64,000 nt of DNA from Campylobacterota bacterium (GCA_030152305.1 JASKOM010000005.1:79620-143619), one strand, 5' to 3'. Positions 6,460-62,058 are shown, counted from the stretch's first letter. Notes: generated from the letters alone by a model not told the origin. Numbers and translations: made by a program.

Positions 6460-8493
6460 TTACTTTCCCTCGTTGTCATCCCGTTGTTTGAGAATTTGTG
6501 AAACTTCCCACGATAAATAATCGCTTATTGTTTTTGTAAAATCTTTTAAAGTTGGTTCGGTGTCAATTGGTGCAGTTTGATTCCAATCAGCTCCATTTTC
6601 TGGATCGATATGACCTTCGTGATATTCTTTATATGAGAATATATTTAATTTATTTTCACCAAAACGAACTAAATTAACAAGTTCTTCATATCGTTCTTTT
6701 GCTCTATCAGAATCTTTGAGATTGCTACTTGCTTTTTTGCGATTTGTTCGTGTGTAACCATCATTTGAAAAATCAATAAATTTAACAATGTCAAAATATT
6801 GATGAGGTTCGCCAACTCTGAAAACATAAATATTCGTTTGAACACTTGATTTACCAATAAATAGATCAACAGGCATTTTTATACTTGCTAATAATGTATG
6901 TTTTTGGAGAATTCTTTTATTATAATCTCGAGCTTTTCCAGAACCAGCAGAATTTTGAATAATTACAGCACCGTAACCTTTATTCATCATATTTAAAGCA
7001 GTTTCAACAAAGTTCATGCCATTTCCATTTGCAGAATATGGAGGATTAAGAACAAGAGCAGTTGCGGGAAACTTTTTATCATTTTGACCAAAACCGTAAT
7101 TGCCTTCAAAATCAGTCAATGAGTTTTTATTTAAAATATTAGAACTTCCATCACCCATTAAGATCATATTCAAAATAGCCAACATATAAACACTTGATAA
7201 TAATTCAATACCTAAAAGCTGTTCAGATTTAATTTTTAGCTCTTTTTGAATTAATTCATCAGGAGACTGAATTTGTAATTCAGCATCATTTAACATTTCA
7301 TTCATTGAAGCAACTAACAAACCAGCTGAACCAGTTGCAAAATCCCAAACATAAGAATCTTTATTAACTCGAGTTAATTTTGCTAAAAGAGTAGCCACAT
7401 AAGTAGGAGTCAAAACAACATCATTTAATTTATCTTGAGAAAAACCTAACCAGCCATACATTTCATTAAAAAGTTTGCCTGTAAAATCAGTTGTCAAACC
7501 TATTTTATAATAAAAGCCTAAATCATCAAATATTTTAATAAATACTCTTTTTAACTGTGTTTCGCCATTTGTTACTTTGTTAATATTTTCAGTCAATAAT
7601 GTATTTGATAATGTTCTAACGATTAAATCTTGTTTATCTCTCGGTAAATTTTTTTCATTTAAAAAATCTACAATTCTGCGAATCATAATATCGCCGTCGC
7701 GATAGCCAATTTCAGTCAAAGATTTTAAATCAGTTTTTTCAAGAGGAGCAACTTTTCCAGCTACTCCAATTGTCGCAATAATCGAACTTGCAACAAGATA
7801 AACACGATCATTTTCACCTAAGCCTTTTTCATTTTGATAAATATCATTATTGAGATTTACTAAACTGATATCGATTTCTCGTTCTTTTTGCTCTTTTATT
7901 TCTTCTTGTTCAGCTTGAGACAAAGTTAATTTTTTTACCTCATCGATAAAATCATCAAAATTTTCTTTTTTTAAAAATGAAAAATCAGAATAATTACCAA
8001 CTTTTTGACCAACACCAAAATTCGATTTTGAAACAAAATAAACAGCTATATCATGTTTAATTTTTTCATTGTCGTCTTTATAACCTGTCATTCCAATAGC
8101 GATAACATTCGTATAACTCGTATAATGCAAAATAGCAGTAGCATAATGAACAGCACCATTTACAGCATAAGAACTTATATTTTTAAAAAGATATTCATTT
8201 TTAGAATTTGAATTTTCTACTTGATTACTTTTGTTTAATTTAACAAGTTTGTCTTTATGACCTTTATATTCAATTAATATTGGATAATAATTTTTATATT
8301 TATCTTGAAGCAATAATTTAACATCAGGTCTATTTCCGCCTTTGCCACCATTTTTTGAAAAGTAATCGTTAAGAGCTTTATCAATTTCACTATTTAATGG
8401 ATTCTGTTCCAACTTGTAATCTAAGTTATAAGACTTTAACCAGCCATTACCTATTTCAGCTATATTTGGTTCTATTGATTGTTTATTTAACAT
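6460..8493 (-). CDS. Fused endonuclease-N6-adenine methyltransferase (type IIB BcgIA-like subunit)
   Basis: Gamma-class MTase motifs occur in the order DFATGSAGLL (motif I) then NPPYS (motif IV). The N-terminal ~300 aa contain a PD-(D/E)xK-like signature (RPDVKLL...ILIEYKG). No HsdR gene is nearby. The 677 and 346 aa sizes resemble BcgI A and B. Confidence 0.65.
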   Translation of the reverse strand: MLNKQSIEPNIAEIGNGWLKSYNLDYKLEQNPLNSEIDKALNDYFSKNGGKGGNRPDVKLLLQDKYKNYYPILIEYKGHKDKLVKLNKSNQVENSNSKNEYLFKNISSYAVNGAVHYATAILHYTSYTNVIAIGMTGYKDDNEKIKHDIAVYFVSKSNFGVGQKVGNYSDFSFLKKENFDDFIDEVKKLTLSQAEQEEIKEQKEREIDISLVNLNNDIYQNEKGLGENDRVYLVASSIIATIGVAGKVAPLEKTDLKSLTEIGYRDGDIMIRRIVDFLNEKNLPRDKQDLIVRTLSNTLLTENINKVTNGETQLKRVFIKIFDDLGFYYKIGLTTDFTGKLFNEMYGWLGFSQDKLNDVVLTPTYVATLLAKLTRVNKDSYVWDFATGSAGLLVASMNEMLNDAELQIQSPDELIQKELKIKSEQLLGIELLSSVYMLAILNMILMGDGSSNILNKNSLTDFEGNYGFGQNDKKFPATALVLNPPYSANGNGMNFVETALNMMNKGYGAVIIQNSAGSGKARDYNKRILQKHTLLASIKMPVDLFIGKSSVQTNIYVFRVGEPHQYFDIVKFIDFSNDGYTRTNRKKASSNLKDSDRAKERYEELVNLVRFGENKLNIFSYKEYHEGHIDPENGADWNQTAPIDTEPTLKDFTKTISDYLSWEVSQILKQRDDNEGK

Positions 8494-8564
8494 TTTTTAT
8501 TTACAGCCTATTGTTTGTTTTTTAGTAATTATACTTATGGGAAATATATTTTAAATTTCACATT

Positions 8565-10811
8565 TCACAACATAACTAATTTTGCACCAGTGCCACCTTG
8601 ATTTGGCGGAGCATCACCGAACCATTTTACACTTGGATGATTTCGTAAGAATTCGATAACTGCTTTTGCAAGAATTCCGCCACCAATTCCGTGAGTTATA
8701 TAAACTTCCGAAAAGCCATTAATCAAAGCATTCGAAATAAATTGATCCATTTCTTCGAGAGCTTCTTCTCGTCGTTTGCCATGTAAATCTAAATAAATAT
8801 CACCACGAACATTTTCACGAATAAAAACATAACTATTTTTATGTCGATCGATATTTATATTTTTTTCTGGAGCTGGAGCGATTTGTTCCCGTTTTAAATC
8901 TATTTTTATTCCGCCAATTTCAATTTGATAAAACTTGCCTTTAATCGTTAATATTTTTCCTCGATTCGATTTATAAACGACCTCATCGCCAACTTTTAAT
9001 TCGCCAGAAATTATTTTTGCTCGTTCGATTTCATTTTCGATACTTTCATTTTGGTCTTTTGGCAATAATTTATTAGCCGTTGTCATATGTCGATGCGAAT
9101 CAGGAACATTTTTAGCTCGAATTGCAGATTTAGCCTCTTCGATTGCACCGCTATAAATATTTTTCAATTCATCTCGTTTAACTTCAATTCCAGATAAAAA
9201 TTTATTTTTTGCTTTGATTAATTCCTGTTCGGTTTCGACGATACTTTCTAATTTTTTATTTAATTCATCTCGTTTTTCGAGAAGTTCTCGTTCGAGATTT
9301 GCCCCTTTTTCGATAAGTTCATTTAATTTTTCTCGATCATCGCCGTATAATTTTCTCGCTTCATTAACAATTGTTGCAGGAATTCCATATCGTTCAGCTG
9401 TTTCAAAGGCATAACTTTTTCCAACAATTCCCTGAAGAAATCTATAAGTTGGCATTCGTTTTTCTTCGTCATAAAGAGCAGCAACAAGTTCAACTTCTGG
9501 ATTTCCGCCTAATAACGAAGCAAGTCTTTTATGATGAGTCGTGATAACTATTTTCGATTCGCGATCCATTAATTTTTCGATTAATATTTTAAAAAGCGAA
9601 GAAGCTTCATCGGCATCAGTTCCAAGTTCTACCTCATCGACACCGATTAATTGGCGATCTTTCGATAATAAATTTGCAAAAGCAACCATTCGACCAGCAA
9701 AAGTCGAAATATCAAAATTGATATTTTGCGGGTCGTCAATCACGGCTTCGATATTTTTAAATTTGCCAATCGTCGAATAATACGAATTAATTTTCATTGG
9801 AATTAAATATTTTGCCAAATAAACAGCTGATAAAATCGATTTTAAAAGCATAGTTTTTCCACCAGCATTAACACCAGTAATTAATAAAACTTTCTTAGAA
9901 AAATCGATTGATAACGGTTTCGGTGAATGCTGAATCGCAGGATGATAAAAATCTTGAATTTTTATAATTTGATCTTTAACTGGCAAAACAAATTCTAAAT
10001 TTCGAGATTTTGCAAAAAATAGACGAGCCTGATAATTATCAAAACGATCAAATTCGCGATCAATAAATTTCAAAAACAAAACAAACGAATTTAATTTTTT
10101 AGAAATTTCTCGACGATAATTTAAATAAATTGCCTCTCGTTCAGCTTCGTAATCGCGAATTTTATTATTTAAATTTGCGATCAAATCAGGTGAAATATAA
10201 AAAAATCCTGAACTACTTCGCCCGATAATATCACCTTTGATAACTGACGAATAACCGCCTTTCATTAAAAGAGCCTCTCGATCATTCAAAAAATGTATTT
10301 GCGAATCGACTAAATATTCAGCGATTCGTTGCGAATGAACAAGCGAATATAAACTCGAACGAATATTTTCTCGTGTTTCAGCAATTCCGATTGAAATCGA
10401 AAACAATCTCGGATCGCTTTCGTCATTAAATTTACCGTCATTATTCAATAAATTATTTAATTCAAGAAAATATGCTGGAATATTTATTTTTTCGATCCAA
10501 TCTTTTGCAATGCCAACAAAATTAACATTTTTTAAATATAAAAAATATCTAACTATTTTTACGATTTCATAAATTTGAGACAAACTTAATAAGCCAAATT
10601 TTTTAACAAGCGAAATCGATTCCCAAATTTCGCTCATCGATTGAGGCGGATTAAAAACGACACCTTCATTTTCAAGCGATTTTATAAAATTCATATGAAA
10701 ATTTAAATCGCCGTCAAAATCTAAATTATTATCTTTTTGTTCTCGTGCGAAAAACTTTCTAAAATCATCAATAAATTTATTTAAGTCTAATTTTTTTTCA
10801 AGATCTAACAT
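8565..10811 (-). CDS. mutS2: Endonuclease MutS2 (MutS domain V ATPase + C-terminal Smr domain)
   Basis: Walker A motif GVNAGGKT. The Smr domain reads LDLHGKRREEALEEMDQFISNA...ITHGIGGGIL. Confidence 0.9.
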   Translation of the reverse strand: MLDLEKKLDLNKFIDDFRKFFAREQKDNNLDFDGDLNFHMNFIKSLENEGVVFNPPQSMSEIWESISLVKKFGLLSLSQIYEIVKIVRYFLYLKNVNFVGIAKDWIEKINIPAYFLELNNLLNNDGKFNDESDPRLFSISIGIAETRENIRSSLYSLVHSQRIAEYLVDSQIHFLNDREALLMKGGYSSVIKGDIIGRSSSGFFYISPDLIANLNNKIRDYEAEREAIYLNYRREISKKLNSFVLFLKFIDREFDRFDNYQARLFFAKSRNLEFVLPVKDQIIKIQDFYHPAIQHSPKPLSIDFSKKVLLITGVNAGGKTMLLKSILSAVYLAKYLIPMKINSYYSTIGKFKNIEAVIDDPQNINFDISTFAGRMVAFANLLSKDRQLIGVDEVELGTDADEASSLFKILIEKLMDRESKIVITTHHKRLASLLGGNPEVELVAALYDEEKRMPTYRFLQGIVGKSYAFETAERYGIPATIVNEARKLYGDDREKLNELIEKGANLERELLEKRDELNKKLESIVETEQELIKAKNKFLSGIEVKRDELKNIYSGAIEEAKSAIRAKNVPDSHRHMTTANKLLPKDQNESIENEIERAKIISGELKVGDEVVYKSNRGKILTIKGKFYQIEIGGIKIDLKREQIAPAPEKNINIDRHKNSYVFIRENVRGDIYLDLHGKRREEALEEMDQFISNALINGFSEVYITHGIGGGILAKAVIEFLRNHPSVKWFGDAPPNQGGTGAKLVML

Positions 10812-10820
10812 AATTTTTAA

Positions 10821-11420
10821 TTACACTCCAATTTTTCGGTCAATAATTGCTCGTTCAATTTTTCTAAAAATATCATTTTCTTTTGACGAAGCATCGATAA
10901 TTAGCATATTTACTCCGAATTCTCGAGGCAAAGATAACAATCTTTTTTGAATCGAAAGAGCATATTCGATTCCTCGTTGTTCAATTTTATCGGGCGATCG
11001 TGCTTTTAATCTGTCCAATAAATCAGCTCGGCTAATTTCAAAAACAACAACAAGATCAGGAAACTTATTTTCGATAACTGCCAAATTCGAATTAATAATA
11101 AAATCCCGCGAAATTTTTGCACTTTCCAAACCGTAAGCAATACCCGAAAAAACGGAACGATCACTAATAATTAACTTGCTCCAATTCAAAGCTGGTTTTA
11201 TAACTTTTTCATAATGTTCGCTTCGATCAGCGAGAAATAATAAAAATTCAGTCATGTCTGCTAATTTTTTGTCGCCATTTAACAAAATTTCTCTGATTTG
11301 AGTTCCAAAAGATGTTCCACCAGGTTCGCGAGTAAAAACAGCATTTAAAAAACGACTTTTTAACAATTCGATTTGTGTTGTTTTGCCAACAAGATCAATA
11401 CCTTCAAGAGCGATATACAT
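10821..11420 (-). CDS. tmk: Thymidylate kinase
   Basis: MYIALEGIDLVGKTTQ P-loop and the DRS motif. Confidence 0.9.
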   Translation of the reverse strand: MYIALEGIDLVGKTTQIELLKSRFLNAVFTREPGGTSFGTQIREILLNGDKKLADMTEFLLFLADRSEHYEKVIKPALNWSKLIISDRSVFSGIAYGLESAKISRDFIINSNLAVIENKFPDLVVVFEISRADLLDRLKARSPDKIEQRGIEYALSIQKRLLSLPREFGVNMLIIDASSKENDIFRKIERAIIDRKIGV

Positions 11421-11421
11421 T

Positions 11422-11775
11422 TTATTTATCTCCTAATAATTTTCTTAAATCTGCACCTTTTGAATTAAACGGTGAAAAATTTAAATTTTCTTTTAATAAT
11501 CTGCCAAGATGACATTCACGACATTTATCGATATGAATATGTTCTGGAATATTTCTCGAAATAGATTCGACTTTATGACATTGAAAACAGTCCGCTCCAC
11601 ATTCGGCTGACCCGATATTTTTCGTATGACATTCTTTGCATAAAAGCATTGGTTGATGTTCGTTATCTAATTTTTCTAATAACTTTGGATGACAACTAAA
11701 ACAGTCGCCATCGCAACTATTTGCCGATGAGGTCGCAAAAACAAATAATAAAATAGCTGAAAATAAATTTGTCAT
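11422..11775 (-). CDS. Small secreted tetrahaem cytochrome c
   Basis: Signal peptide plus four CxxCH motifs (CFSCH, CKECH, CFQCH, CRECH). Confidence 0.7.
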   Translation of the reverse strand: MTNLFSAILLFVFATSSANSCDGDCFSCHPKLLEKLDNEHQPMLLCKECHTKNIGSAECGADCFQCHKVESISRNIPEHIHIDKCRECHLGRLLKENLNFSPFNSKGADLRKLLGDK

Positions 11776-11864
11776 ATAAAAAATCCTGATTAAAAAAACT
11801 TATGATTATTAAATTTTATCGAAAAATATAAATGTTAAAATTTTAAAAAATTAAGGATCTAAAA

Positions 11865-12605
11865 ATGCTATCTGATCTTGACATGATCGATAAAATAGAA
11901 AAGACAGAAAATATTCAAGTTGAAAGCACATTGAATAAACTTCTTTTTAAATTAATAAATTTCGAATGGCGAATTTCTGATCGAACGATCATCGAACATA
12001 CAAAACTTCAAAAAAGAACAGTGATGAGATCAATAAACAATAATATTGAGTTATTAAAATCTTGGGGAACTATAGAAGAAGCTTTTGACTATGTTCAAAC
12101 TATTGACGGAATTGTTAAAGAAAAAACATATTTTTTCACAAAACATCAAGCTTTACAGTTGTTAAGTTATATGAAACGAACAGATCATGTTTTAGATCTT
12201 ATAGTTGATATCTTAAAAGAACAAGAGAGATTAGAGCCAATTGCCAAAATTTTGAAAACAGATCAAGAAGTTGATTACAAAATCGAAGATGAATTAAAAA
12301 GTTATGTAACTCATCTTAGTGAATTAATCGAGATTCTAAAACGACAATATAAACCATTTGGTATTTTTAATGATGCTATAACAAAACAATTAGATAAATA
12401 TCTTTCAGCTCTTGGTGATGAATATTGGAAACCAGCCGAAATTGCAGAAATTACAAATAAAAAAGTTTCGGCTGTGAATAGACTATTAGAATCAAAGGAT
12501 TATCAAATTCAAGAAAATGGTGTTTGGATAATGACAGAAAAAGGTCGTGAATTCGGTGTTGAATTAAACGGTAATTTAAGATGGCTTTTAAGGTCTGTAT
12601 TATAA
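11865..12605 (+). CDS. Orphan, diverged antirepressor paralog (Rha-like N-terminus, KilAC-like C-terminus)
   Basis: EKTYFFTKHQALQLLSYMKRTDHVLD parallels the Rha domain of ORF 1760..2518. The C-terminus (AEIAEITNKKVSAVNRLLESKDYQIQENGVWIMTEKGREFGVELNG) parallels the constant module at low identity. Confidence 0.6.
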   Translation: MLSDLDMIDKIEKTENIQVESTLNKLLFKLINFEWRISDRTIIEHTKLQKRTVMRSINNNIELLKSWGTIEEAFDYVQTIDGIVKEKTYFFTKHQALQLLSYMKRTDHVLDLIVDILKEQERLEPIAKILKTDQEVDYKIEDELKSYVTHLSELIEILKRQYKPFGIFNDAITKQLDKYLSALGDEYWKPAEIAEITNKKVSAVNRLLESKDYQIQENGVWIMTEKGREFGVELNGNLRWLLRSVL

Positions 12606-12609
12606 AAAT

Positions 12610-12651
12610 ACCTCATCGAATAAATAATAAATAAAAATTGCTCGATGAGGT
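12610..12651. terminator. Bidirectional hairpin made of an inverted pair of the ACCTCATCGA motif (10-bp stem, 22-nt loop)
   Basis: ACCTCATCGA at 12610-12619 pairs with TCGATGAGGT at 12642-12651, followed by TTGTGTTTTTT. It lies between convergent genes. Confidence 0.6.
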
Positions 12652-12665
12652 TTGTGTTTTTTGAA

Positions 12666-13178
12666 TTATTTTTTTATAAATAATTCAAAATTATTTATAA
12701 TATCTTCAAAAGAAAAATGATCAGTTAATAAATAATTAAATTTAACACCTGCTGTTTTGCCAGATTGAATATCACTTTCACGATCTCCAACAAGAAGCGA
12801 TTCAGATAAATTTATATTAAACTCTTGAGATGCCTGTAAAATCATTTCAGGTGATGGTTTTCTACATGTGCAATTCTCAACAAAATCTTCATGACATGAA
12901 CAATAATAAACTTTTGTAATTTTTATATTTTGTTTATTAAATTCATTTAACATGAAATCAGTCAAGATTTCAAAATCTTGCTCTGTGTAATATCCGCGAA
13001 TAATTCCTGATTGATTTGTAACAATAAAAATTAAATAATCGTTATTATAAAAATATTTAATAAAATCAAAAACACCATTTATAAATATAAAATCTTCTAT
13101 TTTATGTAAATATCCAGTATCGATATTTATCACACCGTCTCTGTCTAAAAATAAAGCTTTATTTTTAATTACTTTCAA
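12666..13178 (-). CDS. gmhB: D-glycero-beta-D-manno-heptose-1,7-bisphosphate 7-phosphatase (HAD family)
   Basis: FLDRDGVIN, VTNQSGI, CxC...CRKP zinc motif and GDRESD. Confidence 0.8.
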   Translation of the reverse strand: MKVIKNKALFLDRDGVINIDTGYLHKIEDFIFINGVFDFIKYFYNNDYLIFIVTNQSGIIRGYYTEQDFEILTDFMLNEFNKQNIKITKVYYCSCHEDFVENCTCRKPSPEMILQASQEFNINLSESLLVGDRESDIQSGKTAGVKFNYLLTDHFSFEDIINNFELFIKK

Positions 13179-14310
13179 AAGGGCGACCTTCTGTGCAATC
13201 TTTCATATTTTTTATAACTTTTTTAGCTAATTGATCATCGGCAGATAATTCGTTGTCTTCGTTACTTAATAATTCAAGAGTTGTTTTATAATCAATTATT
13301 GATTTATCGCATATACCTAAAGTATGATAAATTTCGGCTCGTTTATTATGTGAAAAATAGTCGCCTTGATTTAAGCCAATTGCTTTTGTGTAATCAGAAA
13401 TTGCTTTATCATAAATAGCAAGTTTTTGATAAGTTTGACCTCGTTTTGTGTAAAAATAAAAAGTATTTGGTTGAACACGAATTATTTTCGAATATTCTTC
13501 GATTGCATTTTGATAATTACCTAATTTATAATGACAATCACCGATTTTATCATATAAATTAATTTTATTTGTGCTTATTCTTAAAGCATGGTCATAATAT
13601 TCAATTGCTTTTTCATATTCTTTTAAATCTTGAAAACAATCTCCAATTTTGTCATATAAATACCATTCTGATTTTTTTATTTGCAAAATAGTATTATAAG
13701 AATCGATAGCATCTTGATGATTGCCTGACAATCTATAAGCATCACCTAATTTATTATGAATAAAAACATTTTGACCATTTAATTTATAACTTTCTTTATA
13801 ATGAACAATTGCAAGATCATATTCTTCAAGTTTTAAACATGTATCACCTATTTCTTCGTGAAGTCGTGGATCACTTTTGCCTAATTCGATAGCTTTAAAA
13901 AAATCGGCAAGTGAATCTTCTAGATAACCTAATTTTGCTTCACATTTGCCTTTTTTAACGAGGATATCAAAATCATTTTTATTAATTTCGTTTGCTTTGC
14001 CATAATCAGCGATTGCATTTGAACATTCACCTTTTTCACGATAGCAGTCGCCTCGTTTGCTGTGAAGTTCATAATTATTTGGGTGATATCTAATAGCCGT
14101 TGTGAAAAATTTAATAGCTAAATCATATTTTTTAGTCATAAAATAAATATCAGCTATTTTTTCATAAAGAGCTATTTGATGACTATCTCGCTCAAGAACT
14201 TCTAAATATTGTTCTATGGCATCTGTTAAATTGCCTGTATGCAAATCTTTATCAGCCGATTCGATAATTTTTTCTACTGACTTCTGAAACAATGAAGAAA
14301 AACTAAACAT
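13165..14310 (-). CDS. TPR-repeat protein
   Basis: Repeated 34-aa A..Y.KA pattern throughout. Confidence 0.7.
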   Translation of the reverse strand: MFSFSSLFQKSVEKIIESADKDLHTGNLTDAIEQYLEVLERDSHQIALYEKIADIYFMTKKYDLAIKFFTTAIRYHPNNYELHSKRGDCYREKGECSNAIADYGKANEINKNDFDILVKKGKCEAKLGYLEDSLADFFKAIELGKSDPRLHEEIGDTCLKLEEYDLAIVHYKESYKLNGQNVFIHNKLGDAYRLSGNHQDAIDSYNTILQIKKSEWYLYDKIGDCFQDLKEYEKAIEYYDHALRISTNKINLYDKIGDCHYKLGNYQNAIEEYSKIIRVQPNTFYFYTKRGQTYQKLAIYDKAISDYTKAIGLNQGDYFSHNKRAEIYHTLGICDKSIIDYKTTLELLSNEDNELSADDQLAKKVIKNMKDCTEGRPFESN

Positions 14311-16550: not shown

Positions 16551-16553
16551 TGT

Positions 16554-54098: not shown

Positions 54099-54207
54099 AA
54101 AATACCTTATTGCATAATCTTTCGATATTTTATCCGAAAATCAGATACTTGACTATTGTCCGAATTTCGGATAAAATTTTGAGTGAATTTTAAATTAAAG
54201 GAACTAA

Positions 54208-55243
54208 ATGATAAATGGATTATCTTTATTCTCAAATGTAGGCATAGGAGAAACATATTTTAAAGAAGTTGGCATCAATATAGTTGTTGCTAATGAGCTG
54301 ATACCTAAAAGAGCAGAATTTTATAAACACATACACAATGAAACAAATATGATTCAAGGAGATATAACCAATGAACATATTTTTAATACTGTTATAGATC
54401 AAGCAAAAAAAATTAAAGTGCGAATTTTTAGTTGCTACTCCTCCTTGTCAATCATTTTCTGTTGCTGGTAAAATGCAAAAAGATGATCCTCGAAGTTTAT
54501 TAATAATCCAAGTGGTTAGAGCAATAAAAGAATTACAGCCTGAATATGCAATTATTGAAAATGTTATAGGAATGCCAAAAGCTGAAATAAATGTAGATGG
54601 TGAATTAATAGTAATCGCTGAATATATCAAAAGAGAGTTAAAGGCTTATTTTATTAACTCTCAAAATGTTGATTTTGCTGATTACGGAATTCCACAACAT
54701 AGAAAACGAAACATTACATTATTATCTAAATCTCAAAAATGGGAATTTCCTATAAAAGAAAAACATGTAACAGTAAAAGAGGCAATTGATCATTTACCAT
54801 CTTTAGAATCATGTGAAAAATCTGATATTAAATGGCATGTTGCAAAAAAACATAATGACGACCATATTTTATGGTTAAAACATACCCCAACAGGTAAAAC
54901 AGCATTTGACAATATTGTTCATTATCCAAAAAAAGATGGCAGAAAAATTAAAGGTTTTTCAACGACATATAAAAGAATGGATGCTGATAAACCAGCACCA
55001 ACTATAACAATGGCAAATGGTTCTATTTCAAGTCAAAATAATGTTCATTATGGAAGATTAAAGCAAGATGGAACATATTCAGATGCAAGAGTTTTAACAA
55101 TTAGAGAGCTACTTATTTTAACTACTTTGCCCGAAGACTGGAATATTCCAGATTGGGCAACTGATAATTTAATCCGTGAAGTAATTGGAGAAGCTGTTCC
55201 GCCACTGTTTTTTAAAAAGGTTTTAGCAAAACTAATAAATTAA
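54208..55243 (+). pseudogene. DNA (cytosine-5) methyltransferase, frameshifted in an A8 tract (54405-54412)
   Basis: Frame 1 gives motif I (LSLFSNVGIGE). Frame 2 gives LVATPPCQSFSVAG (motif IV), then AIIENV (motif VI). With A7 the protein would read ..IDQAKKLKCEFLVATPPCQSFS.. Confidence 0.8.
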
Positions 55244-55303
55244 CAACCTGCTTTATTAAATTGAAGCCCATGATAGGCTTCACCTTTCCCGAATTCATTT
55301 CGG

Positions 55304-55340
55304 GATCTAATTAATTTGAAATATTTGAATTGTTATTTTT
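55304..55340. repeat. 37-bp direct repeat GATCTAATTAATTTGAAATATTTGAATTG(C/T)TATTTTT (other copy 53857-53893)
   Basis: Read directly. Each copy follows a CCCGAA-type hairpin. The pair brackets the small-HTH + methyltransferase module. Confidence 0.8.
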
Positions 55341-55344
55341 AGTT

Positions 55345-55926
55345 TTATTCTTCGATTTGTTTAAGAAAAATAGTTCCGTTATCTTCGAAGTCAAAAGTTA
55401 AAGTAACTGTATAATTGTTGTCTATTCGCAAGTCTAAATTTTCTTGCAAATCTTGATCATAAACTTTAAATTCTAATTCGTTGTAAGCAAGATATTTATC
55501 ATTTGAAGTTTTTGTAATTAAAGGCTCTTCCTTAAAATTAAATACTCCATCAATAATTGTATGTGTTCTGAAAGTTAAAGTAAAAGGTTCAAAATGTTGC
55601 TCTTTTGAAATAATTTCATCTAATGTAAATTCATCTCCGTCTTCAGAATGTGGGGTTACTTGTCCAGTAACTTTATATTTATAGCCCCATTGATACGGTA
55701 AGTTTTCTATTGAATAAGCATGAATAGATTGATCAACAAATTTGTATGCAAATTTATATCTATCTTTACTTTCCATTAACCAAGCCATCATTGGTATTCG
55801 ATAATAATCAATTATGTATTCACTTTGACTTATAACAGAGTTGTTGACATCTGTTGTTGGATTGTTTTCATTGCCACATCCTCCAAAAAGGAGGAATGTT
55901 GCTATTAAAAATAGCCGTTTGATCAT
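55345..55926 (-). CDS. Lipoprotein
   Basis: Lipobox LFGGCGN. It directly abuts the protease gene stop. Confidence 0.6.
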   Translation of the reverse strand: MIKRLFLIATFLLFGGCGNENNPTTDVNNSVISQSEYIIDYYRIPMMAWLMESKDRYKFAYKFVDQSIHAYSIENLPYQWGYKYKVTGQVTPHSEDGDEFTLDEIISKEQHFEPFTLTFRTHTIIDGVFNFKEEPLITKTSNDKYLAYNELEFKVYDQDLQENLDLRIDNNYTVTLTFDFEDNGTIFLKQIEE

Positions 55927-57258
55927 TTATTGAACTTTTACAATAGATATATATTTAATGGAATTATTACCGTCGATAATATCATCGGCTATAATCTCTT
56001 CAACCTCTGAAATATCTTCTACAACTGGTTGAACTGGTACAGACAAAGATTTTACTCTTCTAATATTTATATCTGTATTTGTTGTGCCAGATATAATTTT
56101 TTGAGATTCAGTATTGTCTCCAGAAAAATAGTTACGATTTTTCTTATCCTCATCATCTGTATGAATATACCCACTAGCTAAACTTTTTGAAAAACCACTT
56201 CCAGCAAATACTCCATATTGAATACCTAAAGTTGGAAACGATGTCATTGAACTGCTTTGATTTGTTGAATCAAATAGACAAAAATGCATATACGTATTAC
56301 CGTCATTAACATTTGGAGATGCATTAGCTGACATATAATTTTTATTTTGTGTATTTTCATTATCGAACTTTCGTATTAAAGTTTTTGAACCATTAGGACA
56401 AACCTTACCTAATTTCAAAACAGCATACGGCTCTTTAGGATATAAAGGTTTAAATTGTGCTCCTTTAACTTTACAGAATTTAAAAGTAGTATTGCTTGAA
56501 GATTCAATAGCTCCAATCCAGCCATTTTGACTATTTTTATTGCGACTATCTTCATCATCCATATGTATAGTTACTAACTCGCTATTTGATGGACAGCTAC
56601 TTGTAGCTGGAATAACTCCTATATGTGAGTTATACATTTGATTAATAGTTTCTATATCTCCTTGACTTAAATCAAAGAACTTTTGACCGTACTTGCCATT
56701 TCTTTCAGGATGGCAATAATGCATTATTGACATAACATCATAAGATCCAACTGTAGTATCCCCATAAGTGCCACTTTTAGCACATGTGCTAGATGTATCA
56801 TCTCTGTTTTGTTCATGAGCTATTCCTAGTGCATGTCCAAATTCATGAACAGCACTATTTCTGATACATGTTTCTTCGCTTCCTTGACATTGATCCTTTC
56901 TAAAATTATTAAAGGTAAAATTTAATATTAATCCAGGATTATTATCCAATGTTTGAGTCCCTAAACCTGTTGTTACAGGATTTTCATCAGCTATCTGAAT
57001 CCTAATATCAGCTCCATTTTTATCACAATCTTTCCAACCTATAAAATCAATTACAGAGTTGGCTTCCCAACTTTTTTCAACGGTATCTTTAACCCAACTT
57101 TTTTCAGTTGTAAATCCTGTTGTGTTCCAACAAACAGAAATTTGATTTTTATTCCATAATGCTGTTGATATATAAAACCCTTTTAAGGTTTGCTCACCCG
57201 CAGACAATTCACTAATGCTTAAAAGCGATAAAACCGCTAAGCTAGTTTTTATTTTCAT
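55927..57258 (-). CDS. Secreted astacin-like (M12A) zinc metalloprotease
   Basis: Signal peptide, the extended zinc motif HEFGHALGIAHEQNRDD, and the Met-turn SIMHY. Confidence 0.75.
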   Translation of the reverse strand: MKIKTSLAVLSLLSISELSAGEQTLKGFYISTALWNKNQISVCWNTTGFTTEKSWVKDTVEKSWEANSVIDFIGWKDCDKNGADIRIQIADENPVTTGLGTQTLDNNPGLILNFTFNNFRKDQCQGSEETCIRNSAVHEFGHALGIAHEQNRDDTSSTCAKSGTYGDTTVGSYDVMSIMHYCHPERNGKYGQKFFDLSQGDIETINQMYNSHIGVIPATSSCPSNSELVTIHMDDEDSRNKNSQNGWIGAIESSSNTTFKFCKVKGAQFKPLYPKEPYAVLKLGKVCPNGSKTLIRKFDNENTQNKNYMSANASPNVNDGNTYMHFCLFDSTNQSSSMTSFPTLGIQYGVFAGSGFSKSLASGYIHTDDEDKKNRNYFSGDNTESQKIISGTTNTDINIRRVKSLSVPVQPVVEDISEVEEIIADDIIDGNNSIKYISIVKVQ

Positions 57259-57312
57259 AAAACCTCCATAAATTAATTGTTTATGTTAATTAAACAGCTT
57301 GAAAGTATATTA

Positions 57313-57322
57313 CCCCCCCCCC
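57313..57322. promoter_or_regulatory. C10 (G10 on the coding strand) homopolymeric tract about 55 bp upstream of the protease start
   Basis: Read directly as TTACCCCCCCCCCTTAAG. It is the only long G/C run in the window. Confidence 0.6.
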
Positions 57323-57454
57323 TTAAGAATAGTTTAAGTTAGACAAATAAAATATTATGTTTTTCATAAGTTATAGAAATATTGTTATATTTTGCATGTT
57401 AAGATAATGTTTTTATGTTAATTATGTTTATATTTTATTTATCTTTATAAGTTC

Positions 57455-58252: not shown

Positions 58253-58942
58253 CTATTTAATTCTTTCTATCATCGAAACAATAAAATCAGCACTTTGTTT
58301 AGCCGAAGAGATTAAAAACGAATCGAAATCGAAACCTGCGACCTCATCAGCCGAATCACTAATTGCTCTCAAAACAAAAAACGGAATTCCGAGCGATTCG
58401 CAAACAACAGCAACAGATCCACCTTCCATTTCGATAGCATCGGCATCAAAATGTTTTTTTATCCAATCTTTTCGATTTTTGTCAGCAATAAATTGATCAC
58501 CAGTTGCGATAATTCCAGTAAATAAATTTACATTTAAATCTTTTGCGACCTCATCAGCGATTTTATTTAAATTTTCATCGCTATAAATAAATCTTGAACC
58601 TTCAGGAACATAACCAAATGGATGACCAAAAGTCGAAATATCTAAATCGTGTTGGCACAACGAAGAAGCTCGAATTAAATCACCGATTTTCAAATTTGGA
58701 TTTAAGCCACCTGCAACACCGCTAAATAATAATTTTTCGATGCCAAATTTTTCGATCATAACTGAAGCCGTTAATGACGAAAAAACTTTACCAATTTTGC
58801 TATAAGCAATTACAACATCGTTATCAGCGATTTTTCCGAAATAATAAATATTTTTGCCATATTGAACAAATTTATCAGCATTTGCTAATTTTAAAATTGG
58901 TTCGATTTCTTCTCGCATTGCACCTAATATGCCTATTTTCAT
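58253..58942 (-). CDS. mtnN: 5'-methylthioadenosine/S-adenosylhomocysteine nucleosidase
   Basis: MKIGILGAMREEI, GVAGGL and EMEGGSVA. Confidence 0.85.
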   Translation of the reverse strand: MKIGILGAMREEIEPILKLANADKFVQYGKNIYYFGKIADNDVVIAYSKIGKVFSSLTASVMIEKFGIEKLLFSGVAGGLNPNLKIGDLIRASSLCQHDLDISTFGHPFGYVPEGSRFIYSDENLNKIADEVAKDLNVNLFTGIIATGDQFIADKNRKDWIKKHFDADAIEMEGGSVAVVCESLGIPFFVLRAISDSADEVAGFDFDSFLISSAKQSADFIVSMIERIK

Positions 58943-61425
58943 TGTCTCACCTCTGGGATATTTTCAGCTATTTTAACATTGAAATCAAAAAAATCAGAAT
59001 AGAAAAGTTCATTGTCGAACTTTTTAAATAAGACAGATCCAGCTTCGAAATTCTTAGCTTCTAAATATAATAAGCCTAAAGCATATCGAGTTTCGAGATT
59101 CATTCGGTTGCTTAATCGTGCAAGTTCAAACAATGCAACGGCATTCGCATAATGTTTAGAAGCAATTGCCGAAGTTCCAGCTAAAAACATTGTTCTTGAA
59201 TCTTTTACACCGAAATCATCGATTAATTTATTATAAAGCTGATAAGCATCTTCGAATTTTTGATTCATAAAATATGTGTATGCAAGTGCCTGAATTACAC
59301 CTTCGCGGTTATTTTTTTCAGTCATGTAATGTCGTTTTAAACGATTTTCGAGATCTTGCAAACTGCCTGTTAATAAAGCAAATTTGATCCACATTTCTTG
59401 AGCAATTCTTGCACCATAATAAAAATCATAAATTGGAACTGAACGACTTTGAAAATATGAAATTGTCTCTTTTGAGAATTTTTTTACATCACCATTACCG
59501 TAATTCGAATATAAAAAAAGCATATGTGGAAGAAGTTCATTTGGAAGTTTGCTAACGATCATTCTTGCGATTTTTTTATTTTCGTCGGCATTTTTGCCAT
59601 TTTTTTCTAGGATATTCGTAATAATATAAGAAAATCCTAAATTAAAAATATCGGTTTTATCGGTGCTGTCTAATTCGTTAAACCAATCTTGCATTCCACC
59701 GTAGCTATTATTATGAAAATGCAAAATTGCTTCATATAAACTTTTATCTTTGCTCTCTGGTTCTACTGTTAAATTTTCTCGAAGAACTTCACCTAATTTT
59801 TCGTTATCTTCACCGATGAGGTCGCCAGTCATGATTGCAAAAACACCAGATAAATAATCTCGAGAATTTAAATGAAAACTCTTTTTAAAATGTTCGTGAC
59901 TATTTTTAAAATCGCCTAATTGTGCATAACTTAAGCCTAAATTATAATGCAAAACGGCATGTTTCGGATTATTTAATTCGACTTCTTTTAATATTTTATT
60001 GCCGATTCGAAGTCGTCTATTTAATATTTCACGAACTGCAAGAACAATATTTTTATTAACATCAGAACTTTTTGCACCTTCGATTAAATAGCCAGTTGCT
60101 TCGTCATTATCGCCAACAGAAATATTTGCACTTCCTTTTCGAATCATATTAATACTTTGTTTTGCATCAAATATTTTATATGGAGCAAAATAAAATAATA
60201 GTTGATAATTAACAGGCTTAGAAAACTGCAACTCTTTTTGAAACTGTCGTTGAGCTTTTTGAACATCAAAAACACTTTCTTGAATGGACGGTAAAACGGC
60301 ATATGAATTATTTAATTTATCTTTATATTTGGACCATAAATTACCCAAAAGTCTGCCAGTTTCACCAACTGCACCATCTTTAAGAGCAATCAACGAATCA
60401 GCATATTTTAATTTCATTAAATCAGGATTATCATCTTCGAATTTTCTTAATTCTAATGCTCTAGCTATCGAATCTCGAGCCTGTTTTAATTCGCCCATAT
60501 TTGCATAAATTAAACCTAAATTTCCAACATCGCTATTATCGATAGTTCGTTCAAGAGCTGAAGCACTGCCGACATAATTTTCAAATAATAAATTAACTCG
60601 ACTTTCCATCATGTTTTGTTCTTCTGGAAAATAATTAGAACTTCGATGTTTTAACGGTGAAAAAGTTTCGAAATAATTACCACGATAAAATTGAATTAAT
60701 GAATAATAATAGCTATATAACGGAGAATCGAGTTCGTTTGGCAAATGCTGATAAGCGAGATCTAAATAGGCTTTTTCACTAGCTGTATCGTTTAATTCTT
60801 TGCTACAAACGGCTGCATTAATTGCACTTGGAGTAATATGTTCATGATTTTGTATCGCTTTGTCAAAAGCTTCAATTGCTTCTTGAAATTGACCTTTTTT
60901 TGCTCGAGCAACTCCTAAATTATAATAAGACAAAGATGCATTATATGTCGCAATTCGACCGTAAATTTTTAAAGCTTCGTTTTTTGCACCTTCGCTATAT
61001 AATAAATTTGCCTTTTTAACAAGTTCTTCAACTTGAGATTCTTTTAATGGTTGCGGAGCCTGTCGTTTAAAATTAAAATCTTTAAACTCTTCGATCTGAT
61101 GTTGTTCGACTTCAACAGTTTGTAAATCATCATCTCGATTAAAAAAAATTAATAAAATTAATAAAATTAATAAAACAGCAACCGCTGAAATACCAGAAAG
61201 AGCATAATTAGTAAATTTGTCTTTATTAGTTTCGTAATGTTTAAGAAGTTTTTCTTTATGTTCTTGAATAAGAACTTTTGGATTTGGAATCGAAATATTT
61301 AAACTATCTTTTAAATTTTTTCGTCTTTGTTTTTCTTGAATTTCCTTTTCGGATAATTCGCCTTCTTTTAAAACGATTTGTTCGTCAATATCGTTTATCG
61401 CTTGTTCAATGTTTTTTTGTGCCAT
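58939..61425 (-). CDS. Large membrane-anchored TPR-repeat protein
   Basis: One TM segment (AVAVLLILLILLIFF) and multiple TPR-like units. Confidence 0.65.
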   Translation of the reverse strand: MAQKNIEQAINDIDEQIVLKEGELSEKEIQEKQRRKNLKDSLNISIPNPKVLIQEHKEKLLKHYETNKDKFTNYALSGISAVAVLLILLILLIFFNRDDDLQTVEVEQHQIEEFKDFNFKRQAPQPLKESQVEELVKKANLLYSEGAKNEALKIYGRIATYNASLSYYNLGVARAKKGQFQEAIEAFDKAIQNHEHITPSAINAAVCSKELNDTASEKAYLDLAYQHLPNELDSPLYSYYYSLIQFYRGNYFETFSPLKHRSSNYFPEEQNMMESRVNLLFENYVGSASALERTIDNSDVGNLGLIYANMGELKQARDSIARALELRKFEDDNPDLMKLKYADSLIALKDGAVGETGRLLGNLWSKYKDKLNNSYAVLPSIQESVFDVQKAQRQFQKELQFSKPVNYQLLFYFAPYKIFDAKQSINMIRKGSANISVGDNDEATGYLIEGAKSSDVNKNIVLAVREILNRRLRIGNKILKEVELNNPKHAVLHYNLGLSYAQLGDFKNSHEHFKKSFHLNSRDYLSGVFAIMTGDLIGEDNEKLGEVLRENLTVEPESKDKSLYEAILHFHNNSYGGMQDWFNELDSTDKTDIFNLGFSYIITNILEKNGKNADENKKIARMIVSKLPNELLPHMLFLYSNYGNGDVKKFSKETISYFQSRSVPIYDFYYGARIAQEMWIKFALLTGSLQDLENRLKRHYMTEKNNREGVIQALAYTYFMNQKFEDAYQLYNKLIDDFGVKDSRTMFLAGTSAIASKHYANAVALFELARLSNRMNLETRYALGLLYLEAKNFEAGSVLFKKFDNELFYSDFFDFNVKIAENIPEVRQ

Positions 61426-61575
61426 TATTTGTTATCTTTCAAAAATATAAAATTTGACATATTATCGATAGTTCAACTAAACTAAACAAAGAAAATATGA
61501 AGATTCTGTATGAAATTAGATTTCAACAAAGAGTTTATGTTTCACCTGTAATATATATAAATTTTTTAGAAAAAG

Positions 61576-62058
61576 TTAAAATATTTTGTCAGAAATCACA
61601 TCATCAATATTGACGAATTGTTCACAGTTTTTTCCTTGAAGTTCGATACAAATATTTTGCCATTCATTCGAATGACTATTTTCATTATCTGTAAAATCAC
61701 TTTTTGCTAATATAACGGCATGAGCAAATTCGTGAGGTAACACAGTTGATAAAATATATTCGAAGCTTTCTCTAAACATTTTTCTATTTAAAATAATATA
61801 TATATCGCCACGATTATATATCGTAACACCATATAAATTATCTGGCAAGTTTTCTATTTTAACTGGAACAGGCAAATAAATATCATAACTCGATAAGGTT
61901 CGGCTTATAAGTTCATCTCGTTTTTGATCTATTGCCAACCTCATCGATTTGTCAAGAGGAAAATTATTAAACTCCCAAGTTATATATAAATTATGAATTA
62001 TAAAAATAGTTCCACTTATAATCATAAATAAAAAAATAAATTTTAATTGTTGTTTCAT
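61576..62058 (-). CDS. Putative zinc metallopeptidase (HExxH, SprT-like)
   Basis: N-terminal TM segment, then PHEFAHAVI...HSNEWQ. Confidence 0.45.
   Translation of the reverse strand: MKQQLKFIFLFMIISGTIFIIHNLYITWEFNNFPLDKSMRLAIDQKRDELISRTLSSYDIYLPVPVKIENLPDNLYGVTIYNRGDIYIILNRKMFRESFEYILSTVLPHEFAHAVILAKSDFTDNENSHSNEWQNICIELQGKNCEQFVNIDDVISDKIF

Follow-up and report, generated by a model that had tools for sequence, protein, structure and literature searches.

The window analysed here, a 64,000-nt stretch of Campylobacterota DNA, raises the question of why one 8-mer, ACCTCATC, recurs so often along it and what process could have placed it there. The answer that we favour, with moderate confidence and from sequence comparison, is that its extended form, ACCTCATCR, which stands about once per 1.7 kb in the genes of Thiovulum-type sulfur bacteria in defiance of their codon preferences, may be a DNA uptake signal of the DUS/USS kind that belongs to the Thiovulum lineage and its nearest uncultured relatives and was spread by transformation drive. 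To our knowledge, sequence-specific DNA uptake has been demonstrated in two families only, the Neisseriaceae and the Pasteurellaceae; whether such uptake is an exception or a widespread means of confining recombination to the species has long been asked.

Results

Abundance and form of the word

The window contains 37 copies of ACCTCATC, 21 on the plus and 16 on the minus strand (Table 1); dinucleotide shuffling predicts 0.67 copies (sd 0.79, maximum 3), and an order-3 Markov model predicts 1.0 (z = 35). The initial annotation had estimated about one chance copy and reported at least 36 copies; all the coordinates it listed are correct, and it overlooked the minus-strand copy at 43124. Extension to the 9-mer ACCTCATCG, which it had put at two thirds of the copies, is seen in 25 of the 37. 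We write the nine-base word as ACCTCATCR (reverse complement YGATGAGGT). Its edges are sharp: the shorter CCTCATC is found 38 times, just once more than ACCTCATC.

Position 9 is a purine, and the flanks show weak preferences for A at +12 and C at −2; the surrounding sequences are otherwise unrelated. Helically phased, AT-rich segments were not seen in the flanks. Spacing within the window is random (CV 0.99) with no clustering, approximately 86% of the copies are intragenic, and coding density equals intergenic density. The proteins that host copies are mutually unrelated, and no Rfam family was matched. A REP- or MITE-type repeat was rejected on the lack of shared sequence beyond position 9, save for the weak biases noted above.

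Table 1. Copies of the word and inverted-pair hairpins in the window
Position	Strand	9-mer	Location	Reading frame or remark
6801–6808	−		N6-MTase/VRR-NUC gene (6460–8493, minus)	sense ACCTCATC; E-P-H-Q
7937–7945	+	yes	N6-MTase/VRR-NUC gene (6460–8493, minus)	sense GAT-GAG-GTn; D-E-V
8980–8988	+	yes	mutS2 (8565–10811, minus)	D-E-V
9631–9639	+	yes	mutS2 (8565–10811, minus)	D-E-V
11726–11733	−	yes (with base 11725)	117-aa ORF	T-S-S
12609–12652			hairpin 1	inverted pair; stem 10–11 bp, loop ~22 nt
12610–12618	+	yes	intergenic	hairpin 1, left arm
12643–12651	−	yes	intergenic	hairpin 1, right arm
14594–14601	+		GHMP-kinase gene (14311–15141, minus)	D-E-V
14973–14980	−	yes	GHMP-kinase gene (14311–15141, minus)	K-P-H-R
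16726–16734	+	yes	79-aa called gene (16554–16793, minus), just downstream of lon	D-E-V frame
17213–17220	−		lon (16762–19296, minus)	T-S-S; in lineage-specific variable insert
23943–23950	−	yes	MCP/CZB gene (23770–24897, minus)	S-P-H-R
24356–24364	+	yes	MCP/CZB gene (23770–24897, minus)	D-E-V
26694–26701	−	yes	miaA-like IPPT (26010–26975, plus)	D-E-V
27491–27499	+	yes	shikimate dehydrogenase (26905–27708, minus)	D-E-V
29217–29224	−	yes	flagellar rod gene (29073–29501, plus)	D-E-V
33054–33062	+	yes	sucC-like ATP-grasp/CoA ligase (32093–33259, minus)	D-E-V
34337–34344	−		GGDEF gene (33473–35119, plus)	D-E-V
34541–34548	−		GGDEF gene (33473–35119, plus)	second copy; D-E-V
35461–35469	+	yes	MCP gene (35199–36944, minus)	D-E-V
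37132–37163			hairpin 2	inverted pair; stem 11 bp, loop 10 nt
37133–37141	+	yes	intergenic	hairpin 2, left arm
37154–37162	−	yes	intergenic	hairpin 2, right arm
39234–39241	+		550-aa ORF (39041–40693, minus)	D-E-V
39897–39904	−	yes	550-aa ORF (39041–40693, minus)	T-S-S
40101–40109	+	yes	550-aa ORF (39041–40693, minus)	D-E-V
42429–42436	+		265-aa ORF (42188–42985, minus)	D-E-V
43124–43131	−		Hsp70-like gene (42978–44738, minus)	P-P-H-Q; overlooked at first
44044–44052	+	yes	Hsp70-like gene (42978–44738, minus)	D-E-V
44993–45000	−	yes	intergenic (between 44738 and 45068)	no hairpin
47395–47402	+		474-aa ORF (47070–48494, minus)	D-E-V
50617–50625	+	yes	271-aa ORF (50110–50925, plus)	T-S-S
51928–51935	−	yes	SUI1 (51838–52200, plus)	D-E-V
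51963–51970	+		SUI1 (51838–52200, plus)	K-P-H-Q; divergent inverted pair with 51928 in gene
58341–58348	+		PNP_UDP_1 phosphorylase gene (58253–58942, minus)	D-E-V
58548–58555	+		PNP_UDP_1 phosphorylase gene (58253–58942, minus)	second copy; D-E-V
59815–59822	−	yes	TPR protein gene (58939–61425, minus)	D-L-I
61938–61946	+	yes	SprT-like gene (61576–62058, minus)	S-M-R-L

Enrichment at the level of duplex DNA

The reading frames of the 37 copies fall into 21 that encode D-E-V (16726 in the 79-aa called gene, and 20 in ORFs of 100 aa or more), 11 in other frames (four TSS, five PH[QR], one DLI, and one MRL), and five that are intergenic. The first and last of these counts agree with the initial annotation, whose 10 other-frame copies become 11 with the addition of 43124. 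Glutamate is encoded by GAA in 91% and by GAG in 8–9% of cases in the window, a dominance of GAA that had also been recognised, yet within ORFs of 100 aa or more every one of the 20 D-E-V tripeptides has GAG and is spelled GATGAGGT.

The excess remains when protein sequences are kept constant. In a codon null in which proteins were kept fixed and every codon was redrawn from the usage outside the motif, sense GATGAGGT was expected 1.36 ± 1.14 times in the window and is observed 22 times, and sense ACCTCATC was expected 0.97 ± 0.90 times and is observed 10 times. Enrichment of both orientations with proteins fixed indicates that the target is duplex DNA rather than mRNA or peptide. Across the clade of related genomes described below, D-E-V occurs 61 times compared to 11.4 expected from residue frequencies, an approximately 5-fold excess, and the motif encodes 54 of these 61; the outgroup figures are 19 occurrences compared to 11.7 expected, 5 of the 19 being motif-encoded.

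These data refute codon usage, a recurrent peptide motif, a mobile MITE or REP element, and faulty assembly as sources of the word. That more than half of the copies encode D-E-V would fit a codon or peptide origin, but the codon-aware nulls fall short by more than 10-fold in both orientations. The unrelated host proteins and the lack of an Rfam match argue against a peptide or repeat origin, as do the unrelated flanks against a mobile one, and assemblies of separate origin (NCBI, JGI, ENA, and Logan) carry the word.

Hairpins at inverted pairs

The initial annotation had proposed terminator hairpins, and two intergenic inverted pairs do form hairpins, the first of which has the shape of a terminator. 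Hairpin 1 is flanked by convergent genes (11865–12605, plus; 12666–13178, minus), carries U-rich tails on both strands, and folds with −14.2 and −14.8 kcal/mol (z = −3.5 and −6.0), making it a plausible bidirectional terminator. Hairpin 2 folds with −17.9 and −16.0 kcal/mol, and a clear U tail was not seen there, which leaves the terminator proposal only partly confirmed. A simple terminator scan called neither hairpin. Directly downstream of hairpin 2 lies a duplicated element of approximately 195 bp.

Strand polarity and accessory DNA

GC skew is uniformly negative in the window and, together with gene orientation, points to one replichore. Within it, the strand split is 21:16 rather than the 21:15 counted originally, and the accompanying statement that strong polarity is absent holds more widely: pooled over six clade loci and scored against the sign of GC skew, the split is 50:51. 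A Chi-like skew of 75:25 is rejected for both the window (P = 0.012) and the pooled loci (P = 1e-7). This result bears directly on whether the word could be a Chi-like AddAB/RecBCD recombination hotspot or a KOPS-like translocase guide. Such a role would suit an over-represented 8-mer, which matches Chi and KOPS of E. coli in length; Campylobacterota encode AddAB, and we know of no Chi sequence in the phylum. With no co-orientation with replication, a density higher than that of Chi, and inverted pairs at gene ends that make no sense for a polar signal, we regard it as very unlikely. A polar signal of the Chi/KOPS type was rejected, and the recombination option of the initial annotation was dropped along with it.

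The phage-like regions 1–5345 and 52201–57258 (10.4 kb) contain no copies, in line with what had been stated for a cassette array and a mosaic. Under uniform placement, P = 0.0014 for regions that were picked after the fact; a 6.7-kb motif-free gap also occurs in core genes, and each accessory gap alone is within random expectation.

Conservation, dialects, and turnover among relatives

Among 8-mers, the word ranks first in every relative whose Lon protein is at least 63% identical (63–76%), in genomes from independent projects with GC contents of 28 to 38%, including the closed Ca. Thiovulum stygium chromosome (CP091137.1). Its density is 0.45–1.04/kb in the 11 loci of this clade (0.65/kb overall, about one per 1.5–2 kb) and 0.053/kb, a background level, in 1.43 Mb drawn mostly from other Campylobacterota. 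The clade values lie within the range of DUS and USS. Within this conserved pattern there are dialects: some lineages have G at position 9 and others have A (P = 3e-5), and the L034 lineage carries an additional CC on the 5′ side (P = 0.003–0.005). Individual sites turn over. A lon site at a conserved IPDEV peptide is common to four species, the same peptide being spelled with GAT GAA GTC in the lon of one outgroup, and private lon sites are found in a variable insert, one in the window and one in the relative L027.

Between two Ca. T. stygium strains (97.45% identity), 15 of 15 sites are identical (P = 0.045 under neutrality), so that the sites are conserved no less than their background. Together with the sharpness of the word and a core that is unchanged across a deep clade, this identity would be consistent with a site to which some abundant chromosomal protein binds, each copy being kept by selection in cis because it serves to organise or segregate the nucleoid or marks self DNA in defence or repair. 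Such a role is quite improbable in our view, given the random, unclustered spacing, the equal coding and intergenic densities, and the absence of copies from the highly conserved fusA, rpsG, rpsL, rplM, and rpsI. The parS, matS, SlmA, and Noc sites are few, clustered, or palindromic, and KOPS is polar. Turnover between species and the position of sites in the least constrained parts of proteins fit drive better than site-by-site function. Separately, a protein-binding function might matter in the large, possibly polyploid cells of Thiovulum.

One-mismatch variants occur at 0.51/kb in the clade versus 0.76/kb in outgroups (79 observed versus 118 expected at the outgroup rate, P = 9e-5), and all eight positions are all-or-none. 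Active conversion would yield near-matches below the outgroup rate, and both features would suit an internal DNA process like the one proposed for cyanobacterial HIP1, in which a lineage-specific methyltransferase or other reader, combined with biased mismatch repair or gene conversion, turns near-matches into the exact word with no role in uptake. In the same direction point the absence of GATGAAGT from the window (3.7 expected), the methyltransferase genes common in the loci analysed, and the abundant words that other Campylobacterales lineages have of their own, some of them palindromes typical of methyltransferase sites (TACATGTA, CGATCGCA). Among environmental Campylobacterales, the hyper-abundant dispersed word is CTGCGTTTR in a Sulfurimonas lineage, TGCGTGAGR in another lineage, and TACATGTA in a third.

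Several observations nevertheless make an internal process unlikely. A contiguous asymmetric site of 8–9 bp is long for known methyltransferase specificities. Vsr-type repair acts on T:G mismatches at methylated C only and hence cannot sharpen all eight positions; C-to-T one-off variants are depleted no more than other one-off variants, and in E. coli such repair moves word counts only modestly, not approximately 20-fold. HIP1-type periodic spacing is absent. Finally, an internal process should reach resident prophage-like DNA, which is free of copies, although recent arrival would explain that absence too.

Discussion

A proposed model of biased DNA uptake

The initial annotation had described a self-DNA signature, possibly for uptake or recombination, and its uptake option survived the computational tests. 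If ACCTCATCR is an uptake signal, double-stranded DNA would be imported through retractile type IV pili and a ComEA/ComEC/DprA pathway, and a surface or periplasmic DNA receptor would favour fragments with the 9-mer, reading either the bare sequence, as does the ComP pilin in Neisseria, or a methyl mark, as with CtsM in Campylobacter jejuni. Word-bearing alleles would be imported and recombined more often than word-less alleles, and the word would consequently spread by molecular drive to about one copy per 1.5–2 kb, in either orientation and at any place that the protein can accommodate. This would happen chiefly through the change of GAT-GAA-GTn to GAT-GAG-GTn and through newly made D-E-V tripeptides, and recently acquired DNA would be without the word. 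We infer that uptake bias is the force behind the enrichment, the dialects, and the turnover of sites.

Components of the proposed machinery are on record. Type IV pilus genes are reported in six of six Thiovulum genomes, PilT, ComEA, and DprA appear in the annotation tables of Thiovulum genomes, and those of strain ES list ComEC and ComFC/CtsW (PMC9938260). In L034, a member of the clade, a PilT/PilU pilus-retraction ATPase scores 456 bits against a cut-off of 319.

More generally, if Campylobacterota supplied a third, independent case, in which the word differs and the reader presumably does too, comparative tests of signal origin (drive versus selection) and of receptor–word co-evolution would become possible. 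More tentatively, and somewhat doubtfully, this could be the first DNA uptake signal outside the Neisseriaceae and Pasteurellaceae and, given the hyper-abundant words of other environmental Campylobacterales lineages, perhaps one of several, with sequence-tagged uptake of self DNA common and fast-diversifying in the phylum and the specificity of a receptor family switching between lineages. We know of no pure culture of Thiovulum. The parallel Sulfurimonas-type words are of practical interest: members of that genus have been cultured, and any of them that bear the word may lend themselves to uptake assays. The dense type IV pili of Thiovulum deserve re-examination, as they may serve DNA exchange within veils, and the word offers a simple marker for the binning and host assignment of Thiovulum-type metagenome DNA.

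Comparison with known systems

Chi (GCTGGTGG) and KOPS (GGGNAGGG) are likewise over-represented chromosomal 8-mers, but both are strongly co-oriented with replication, unlike the Thiovulum word. Cyanobacterial HIP1 (GCGATCGC) is a hyper-abundant 8-mer that is enriched 15–300-fold, overrides codon choice as the Thiovulum word does, and is similarly shared by a large clade (PMC5861425). It is palindromic and quasi-periodic and is known as a methyltransferase target, whereas the Thiovulum word is asymmetric and randomly spaced; an iterated palindrome of the HIP1 type was thus not matched.

The two USS types of the Pasteurellaceae (AAGTGCGGT and ACAAGCGGT) resemble ACCTCATCR in being mainly intragenic, in occupying tolerated frames and variable protein segments, in shifting tripeptide frequencies, and in that molecular drive from uptake bias can explain the word. 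USS and the Thiovulum word also have in common that copies with one mismatch are far less frequent than perfect ones; one-mismatch words are still over-represented in H. influenzae and N. gonorrhoeae, though 82–92-fold less than the perfect word (PMC1939737). One-mismatch copies in the Thiovulum clade are without any excess, a discrepancy that is mild because the perfect word is only approximately 20-fold enriched and a one-mismatch residue would be hard to see. In addition, the all-or-none positions look more like enzyme recognition than the graded specificity measured for USS, the helically phased AT-rich flanks of USS have no counterpart around ACCTCATCR, and the spelling of D-E-V has reached saturation, each occurrence in the window being encoded by the motif.

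The DUS of the Neisseriaceae has the core GCCGTCTGAA, a 12-mer form (AT-DUS), and family dialects, and its reader is the minor type IV pilin ComP. Shared with it are a family-wide core with lineage dialects (compare PMC3630211), a short asymmetric word at about one copy per 1–2 kb in both orientations with no replichore polarity, inverted pairs at gene ends, and a host with type IV pili and competence genes, here from published Thiovulum annotations and the PilT/PilU of L034. The Thiovulum word differs in its unrelated sequence, its shorter core (8 + R), its phylum, and its mostly genic location in the window.

In the same phylum, Campylobacter jejuni reportedly discriminates transforming DNA in a manner dependent on CtsM and RAATTY methylation, a finding attributed to Beauchamp et al. 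in PNAS, 2017. There, a self-recognition mark is used at the DNA-uptake step, which suggests that the Thiovulum reader could recognise a methylated word rather than the bare sequence. RAATTY, a degenerate 6-mer palindrome, is frequent as a result of base composition, whereas ACCTCATCR is a rare asymmetric 9-mer that has been built up approximately 20-fold.

Abundance and shape of the word

The 8-mer ACCTCATC occurs 37 times in the window, counting both strands (21 plus, 16 minus), compared with 0.67 copies (maximum 3) in dinucleotide-preserving shuffles and 1.0 under an order-3 Markov model (z = 35); no second 8-mer comes near it in over-representation under that model. These expectations agree with the figure of about one copy in the initial annotation, whose listed coordinates are all correct but whose tally had overlooked one minus-strand copy (43124). 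The edges of the word are sharp: CCTCATC is found 38 times, and 37 of the 40 occurrences of ATGAGG fall within the word. G follows in 25 of the 37 copies, the two thirds previously said to extend to a 9-mer. Across 100 sites pooled from six loci of the clade (the window and relatives with Lon proteins at least 63% identical to its own), position 9 is G in 54, A in 34, T in 10, and C in 2; since this position is a purine, the functional word is ACCTCATCR. Weaker flank biases are seen in the same sites at +12 (A, 61%) and −2 (C, 36%), and outside these positions codon periodicity alone is visible.

Placement, polarity, and hairpins

Thirty-two copies are genic and five intergenic, and word density is similar in coding and non-coding DNA of the window. 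Spacing is random (CV 0.99, which excludes even spacing), and a largest gap of 6.7 kb is within expectation. GC skew is negative throughout and 83% of coding DNA lies on the minus strand, which indicates that the window lies within one replichore; the 21:16 split is observed despite this. After orientation by GC-skew sign, the six clade loci together give 50:51, in keeping with the lack of strong polarity described earlier. A polar chromosomal signal such as Chi or KOPS is therefore rejected (P = 1e-7 against a Chi-like 75:25) and is considered very improbable.

Three pairs of copies lie less than 50 bp apart, all inverted, where about one close pair is expected (P = 0.085). Two of these are intergenic, so that the initial annotation was right about five intergenic copies including two inverted pairs; its reading of the pairs as terminators is plausible for one of them, in which U-rich tails flank the stem, and less so for the other, which has none. 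Hairpin 1 is plausibly a bidirectional terminator. A consensus terminator scan called neither hairpin because their loops exceed its rule, and no Rfam family matches the window.

The word is absent from 1-5345, which holds four tandem Bro-N/Rha genes, and from the accessory island at 52201-57258 (P = 0.0014 for both under uniform placement, the regions having been delimited post hoc), as had been noted for a cassette array (1-5345) and a mosaic at 52400-57400.

Coordinates of features in the window and in related loci
Locus	Coordinates	Feature	Description
Window	1-6400	Tandem units	Four, 1.17-1.2 kb, each with a Bro-N or Rha-type (phage antirepressor-like) gene; 3' halves and spacers common to all (86-99% identical), 5' parts variable
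Window	5360-6400	Type I S-subunit gene	Adjoins tandem units
Window	6460-8493	N6-methylase/VRR-NUC gene	Adjoins tandem units
Window	12610-12651	Hairpin 1	10-11 bp stem; convergent genes either side; U-rich tails in both directions
Window	31070	Palindrome	Related to that of the ~195 bp element
Window	37132-37163	Hairpin 2	Folds well; no U tail
Window	37161-37350	~195 bp element, copy after hairpin 2	Non-coding; promoter-like start (TTGTTTACTTGT...TGCTACAAT) and palindrome GGGAGATCTCCC
Window	37367-47066	Gene cluster	Four Hsp70/actin-fold ATPase genes, VWA domain, several large ORFs without family match
Window	52201-52395	~195 bp element, near-identical copy	At start of accessory island, past SUI1
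Window	52201-57258	Accessory island	KilA-N protein, HTH protein, C5 cytosine methylase (matches only profile positions 83-323), ApeC/astacin-like metalloprotease
L170 (CP091137.1)	10001-12561	Split lon	587-aa and 207-aa ORFs; intact 860-aa gene in close relative L027
L075 (outgroup)	13194-13318	Perfect 9-bp tandem repeat	TGAGTTTCT, 14 copies, metagenome contig end
L059 (outgroup)	13352-13457	Perfect 9-bp tandem repeat	CTGGAACTT, at least 11 copies, metagenome contig end

The tandem units have the look of a cassette or shuffling array associated with a restriction-modification locus, and the C5 cytosine methylase of the island, judged by its profile match, is probably truncated. Possible identities of the ~195 bp element, which has no Rfam match, are a small RNA gene and a repeat at the island boundary. 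The ATPase cluster, possibly a conflict or defence system, contains nine copies of the word and is therefore probably long resident.

Codon and protein level

GAA accounts for 91% of Glu codons in the genome of the window, a dominance already remarked on, yet D-E-V is spelled GAT-GAG-GTn in 20 of 20 tripeptides (56 ORFs of at least 100 aa). The tripeptides DEI, DEL, DEA, EEV, and NEV nearly always use GAA. Synonymous-codon shuffling inside genes yields 4.3 ± 1.8 copies against 31 observed. A stricter null, in which all protein sequences were kept and each codon was redrawn according to codon usage elsewhere than in the motif, predicts 1.36 ± 1.14 sense copies of GATGAGGT and 0.97 ± 0.90 of ACCTCATC, compared with 22 and 10 observed; the enrichment thus persists in a codon-aware comparison. 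Enrichment of both orientations within genes indicates that the target is duplex DNA, not mRNA or peptide, and a Shine-Dalgarno-like GAGGU pause in mRNA is ruled out by the equal enrichment of the antisense orientation. Codon usage or a favored peptide as the source is rejected by the two nulls, a mobile repeat by flanks that are unrelated beyond position 9, and an artefact by recurrence of the word in independent assemblies; origins of this kind can be practically discounted.

The effect extends to protein sequence. D-E-V is about 5-fold in excess of residue-frequency expectation in the window (20 versus 4.3). Across the clade it occurs 61 times versus 11.4 expected, with 54 of the 61 encoded by the motif, and in the outgroups (other loci fetched via Lon) 19 times versus 11.7, with 5 of the 19 so encoded. 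The force behind the word is strong enough to alter proteins.

Taxonomic range

The proteins of the window are of the type of a deep Campylobacterota lineage. Relatives were retrieved through their Lon proteins, and the contig with the window's Lon was read from the Logan assembly of SRR24719468. The most over-represented 8-mer is ACCTCATC or an overlapping 9-mer in all five relatives, whose Lon proteins are 76% (L027), 69% (L028), 67% (L031), 65% (L033), and 63% (L034) identical to that of the window. Clade loci, with GC contents of 28-38% and drawn from NCBI, JGI, ENA, and Logan assemblies, carry 0.45-1.04 copies per kb. A member of the 76% Lon cluster is borne by CP091137.1 (GCA_021582295.1), the closed 1.72-Mb genome of Candidatus Thiovulum stygium (PMC9938260), with 15 copies in 21.8 kb. 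Its lon gene is split, either as a real pseudogene or through a homopolymer error of the Nanopore-based assembly. Extrapolation gives about 1,000-1,500 copies of the word per genome.

A genome-collection scan with Lon returned relatives at most 63% identical, which were taken as outgroups; the nearest relatives beyond the clade are Sulfurimonas and other MAGs with Lon 55-63% identical, plus one at 59%. A metagenome scan with the clade Lon alignment gave, among the matches listed, at least 80 loci (1.04 Mb, Lon 56-60%), all outgroups and none a further clade member, which provided a good negative control. Outgroups, metagenome loci, and Lon relatives from other phyla all stand at background (0.048-0.053/kb), which makes the word characteristic of the Thiovulum lineage together with its closest uncultured relatives. 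A viral scan for the inverted pair produced 52 matches, mostly moderate- or high-GC contigs with at most four additional copies, as chance would produce; the scan gave no phage bearing the clade signature.

Dialects, turnover, and one-mismatch variants

Position 9 shows dialects, G being favored in the window, L027, L033, and L034, and A in L028 and L031 (P = 3e-5); L034 has an additional CC preference at −2 and −1 (P = 0.003-0.005). Between two Ca. T. stygium strains (97.45% identity) 15 of 15 aligned sites are intact, a marginal result (P = 0.045 under neutrality), and the only changes close by are two A/G substitutions at position 9. Strain pairs at 99.3-99.97% identity were too alike for a site-conservation test. 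Alignment of lon codons shows one site, at a conserved IPDEV peptide, that is common to four clade species, whereas an outgroup encodes this peptide as GAT GAA GTC; the peptide is lost from lon of the window and L027, each of which has one private site inside a lineage-specific insert. The highly conserved genes fusA, rpsG, rpsL, rplM, and rpsI lack the word. It follows that sites arise where proteins tolerate them, and turn over. Such turnover, like the random placement, argues against a binding site maintained by selection at each position, which we consider improbable.

One-mismatch variants are not enriched (clade 0.51/kb versus 0.76/kb in low-GC outgroups). The clade holds 79 versus 118 expected (P = 9e-5), and GATGAAGT is absent from the window versus 3.7 copies expected. 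Singly mismatched words remain over-represented in H. influenzae and N. gonorrhoeae, though 92- and 82-fold less than perfect ones (PMC1939737); because perfect-word enrichment here is only 13-35-fold, a comparable residue would be invisible. The mild depletion is compatible with draining into perfect sites and equally with an internal conversion process. The latter bears on a word maintained internally, as proposed for the cyanobacterial palindrome HIP1; such maintenance would account for the sharp, all-or-none character of the word and for the depletion of one-mismatch variants. However, the word is asymmetric and long, lacks periodicity, and shows no specific depletion of C-to-T variants of the kind that Vsr-type repair would predict; an explanation of this type is unlikely, though it carries some weight.

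Abundant words in other lineages

Some outgroup lineages, mostly Campylobacterales, have dispersed, lineage-specific words of their own, at 0.3-0.8/kb versus 0.01-0.03/kb elsewhere.

Abundant 8-mers of outgroup loci
Word	Loci	Density (per kb)	Elsewhere (per kb)
CTGCGTTT	L002, L007, L092, L115 (Sulfurimonas-type)	0.58-0.76	0.009
TGCGTGAG	L089, L077	0.44-0.67	0.022
TACATGTA (palindrome)	L042, L056, L062, L090, L116	0.33-0.79	0.018
CGATCGCA	L003	0.58	0.029
GCGGAGAC	L013 (Spirochaetales MAG)		

The asymmetric words occur in both orientations, inspection of L002, L089, and L062 showed unrelated flanks, and a purine follows CTGCGTTT in 43 of 49 copies, as with ACCTCATC. No such 8-mer was present in 53 of 77 loci of at least 10 kb. 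These words may represent the same phenomenon with different sequences; if so, environmental Campylobacterales commonly tag their DNA in a lineage-specific way. The apparent motifs of L075 and L059 were set aside as 9-bp tandem repeats at contig ends, and that of L098 as partly a repeat array. The L075 and L059 repeats, which k-mer screens can mistake for abundant 8-mers, are either artefacts or coding repeats at which the assembly broke off.

A candidate DNA uptake signal

The clade member L034 encodes a PilT/PilU retraction ATPase. Complete type IV pilus gene sets are reported for all six Thiovulum genomes described, and many surface filaments of Thiovulum have been argued to be pili; in the accompanying annotation tables, PilT, ComEA, and DprA appear for Thiovulum genomes and ComEC plus ComFC/CtsW for strain ES (PMC9938260). 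Competence machinery in this lineage is plausible. The same paper makes no mention of competence, and since neither "motif" nor "oligonucleotide" appears in its text, it apparently does not report the word (PMC9938260). Full-text literature searches turned up neither this word nor an uptake sequence described for Campylobacterota, in line with the initial annotation, which knew of none described.

We infer a bias in DNA uptake, and give roughly even chances to the word being a DNA uptake signal spread by transformation-driven molecular drive. It could be read by a pilin-type receptor or, alternatively, by a protein recognizing a methyl mark on the word, for which Campylobacter jejuni CtsM offers an analogy. 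On sequence evidence, it is rated a candidate uptake-signal-type genome word, new in phylum and in sequence. It has no copy in the two phage-like regions, delimited post hoc, and is at times paired at gene ends. Like the DNA uptake sequences of Neisseriaceae and the uptake signal sequences of Pasteurellaceae, it is a duplex-level word that shows no polarity and occurs in either orientation, roughly once per 1.5-2 kb; it lies mainly in tolerated reading frames, where it shifts tripeptide usage; and it is kept across a clade, with dialects.
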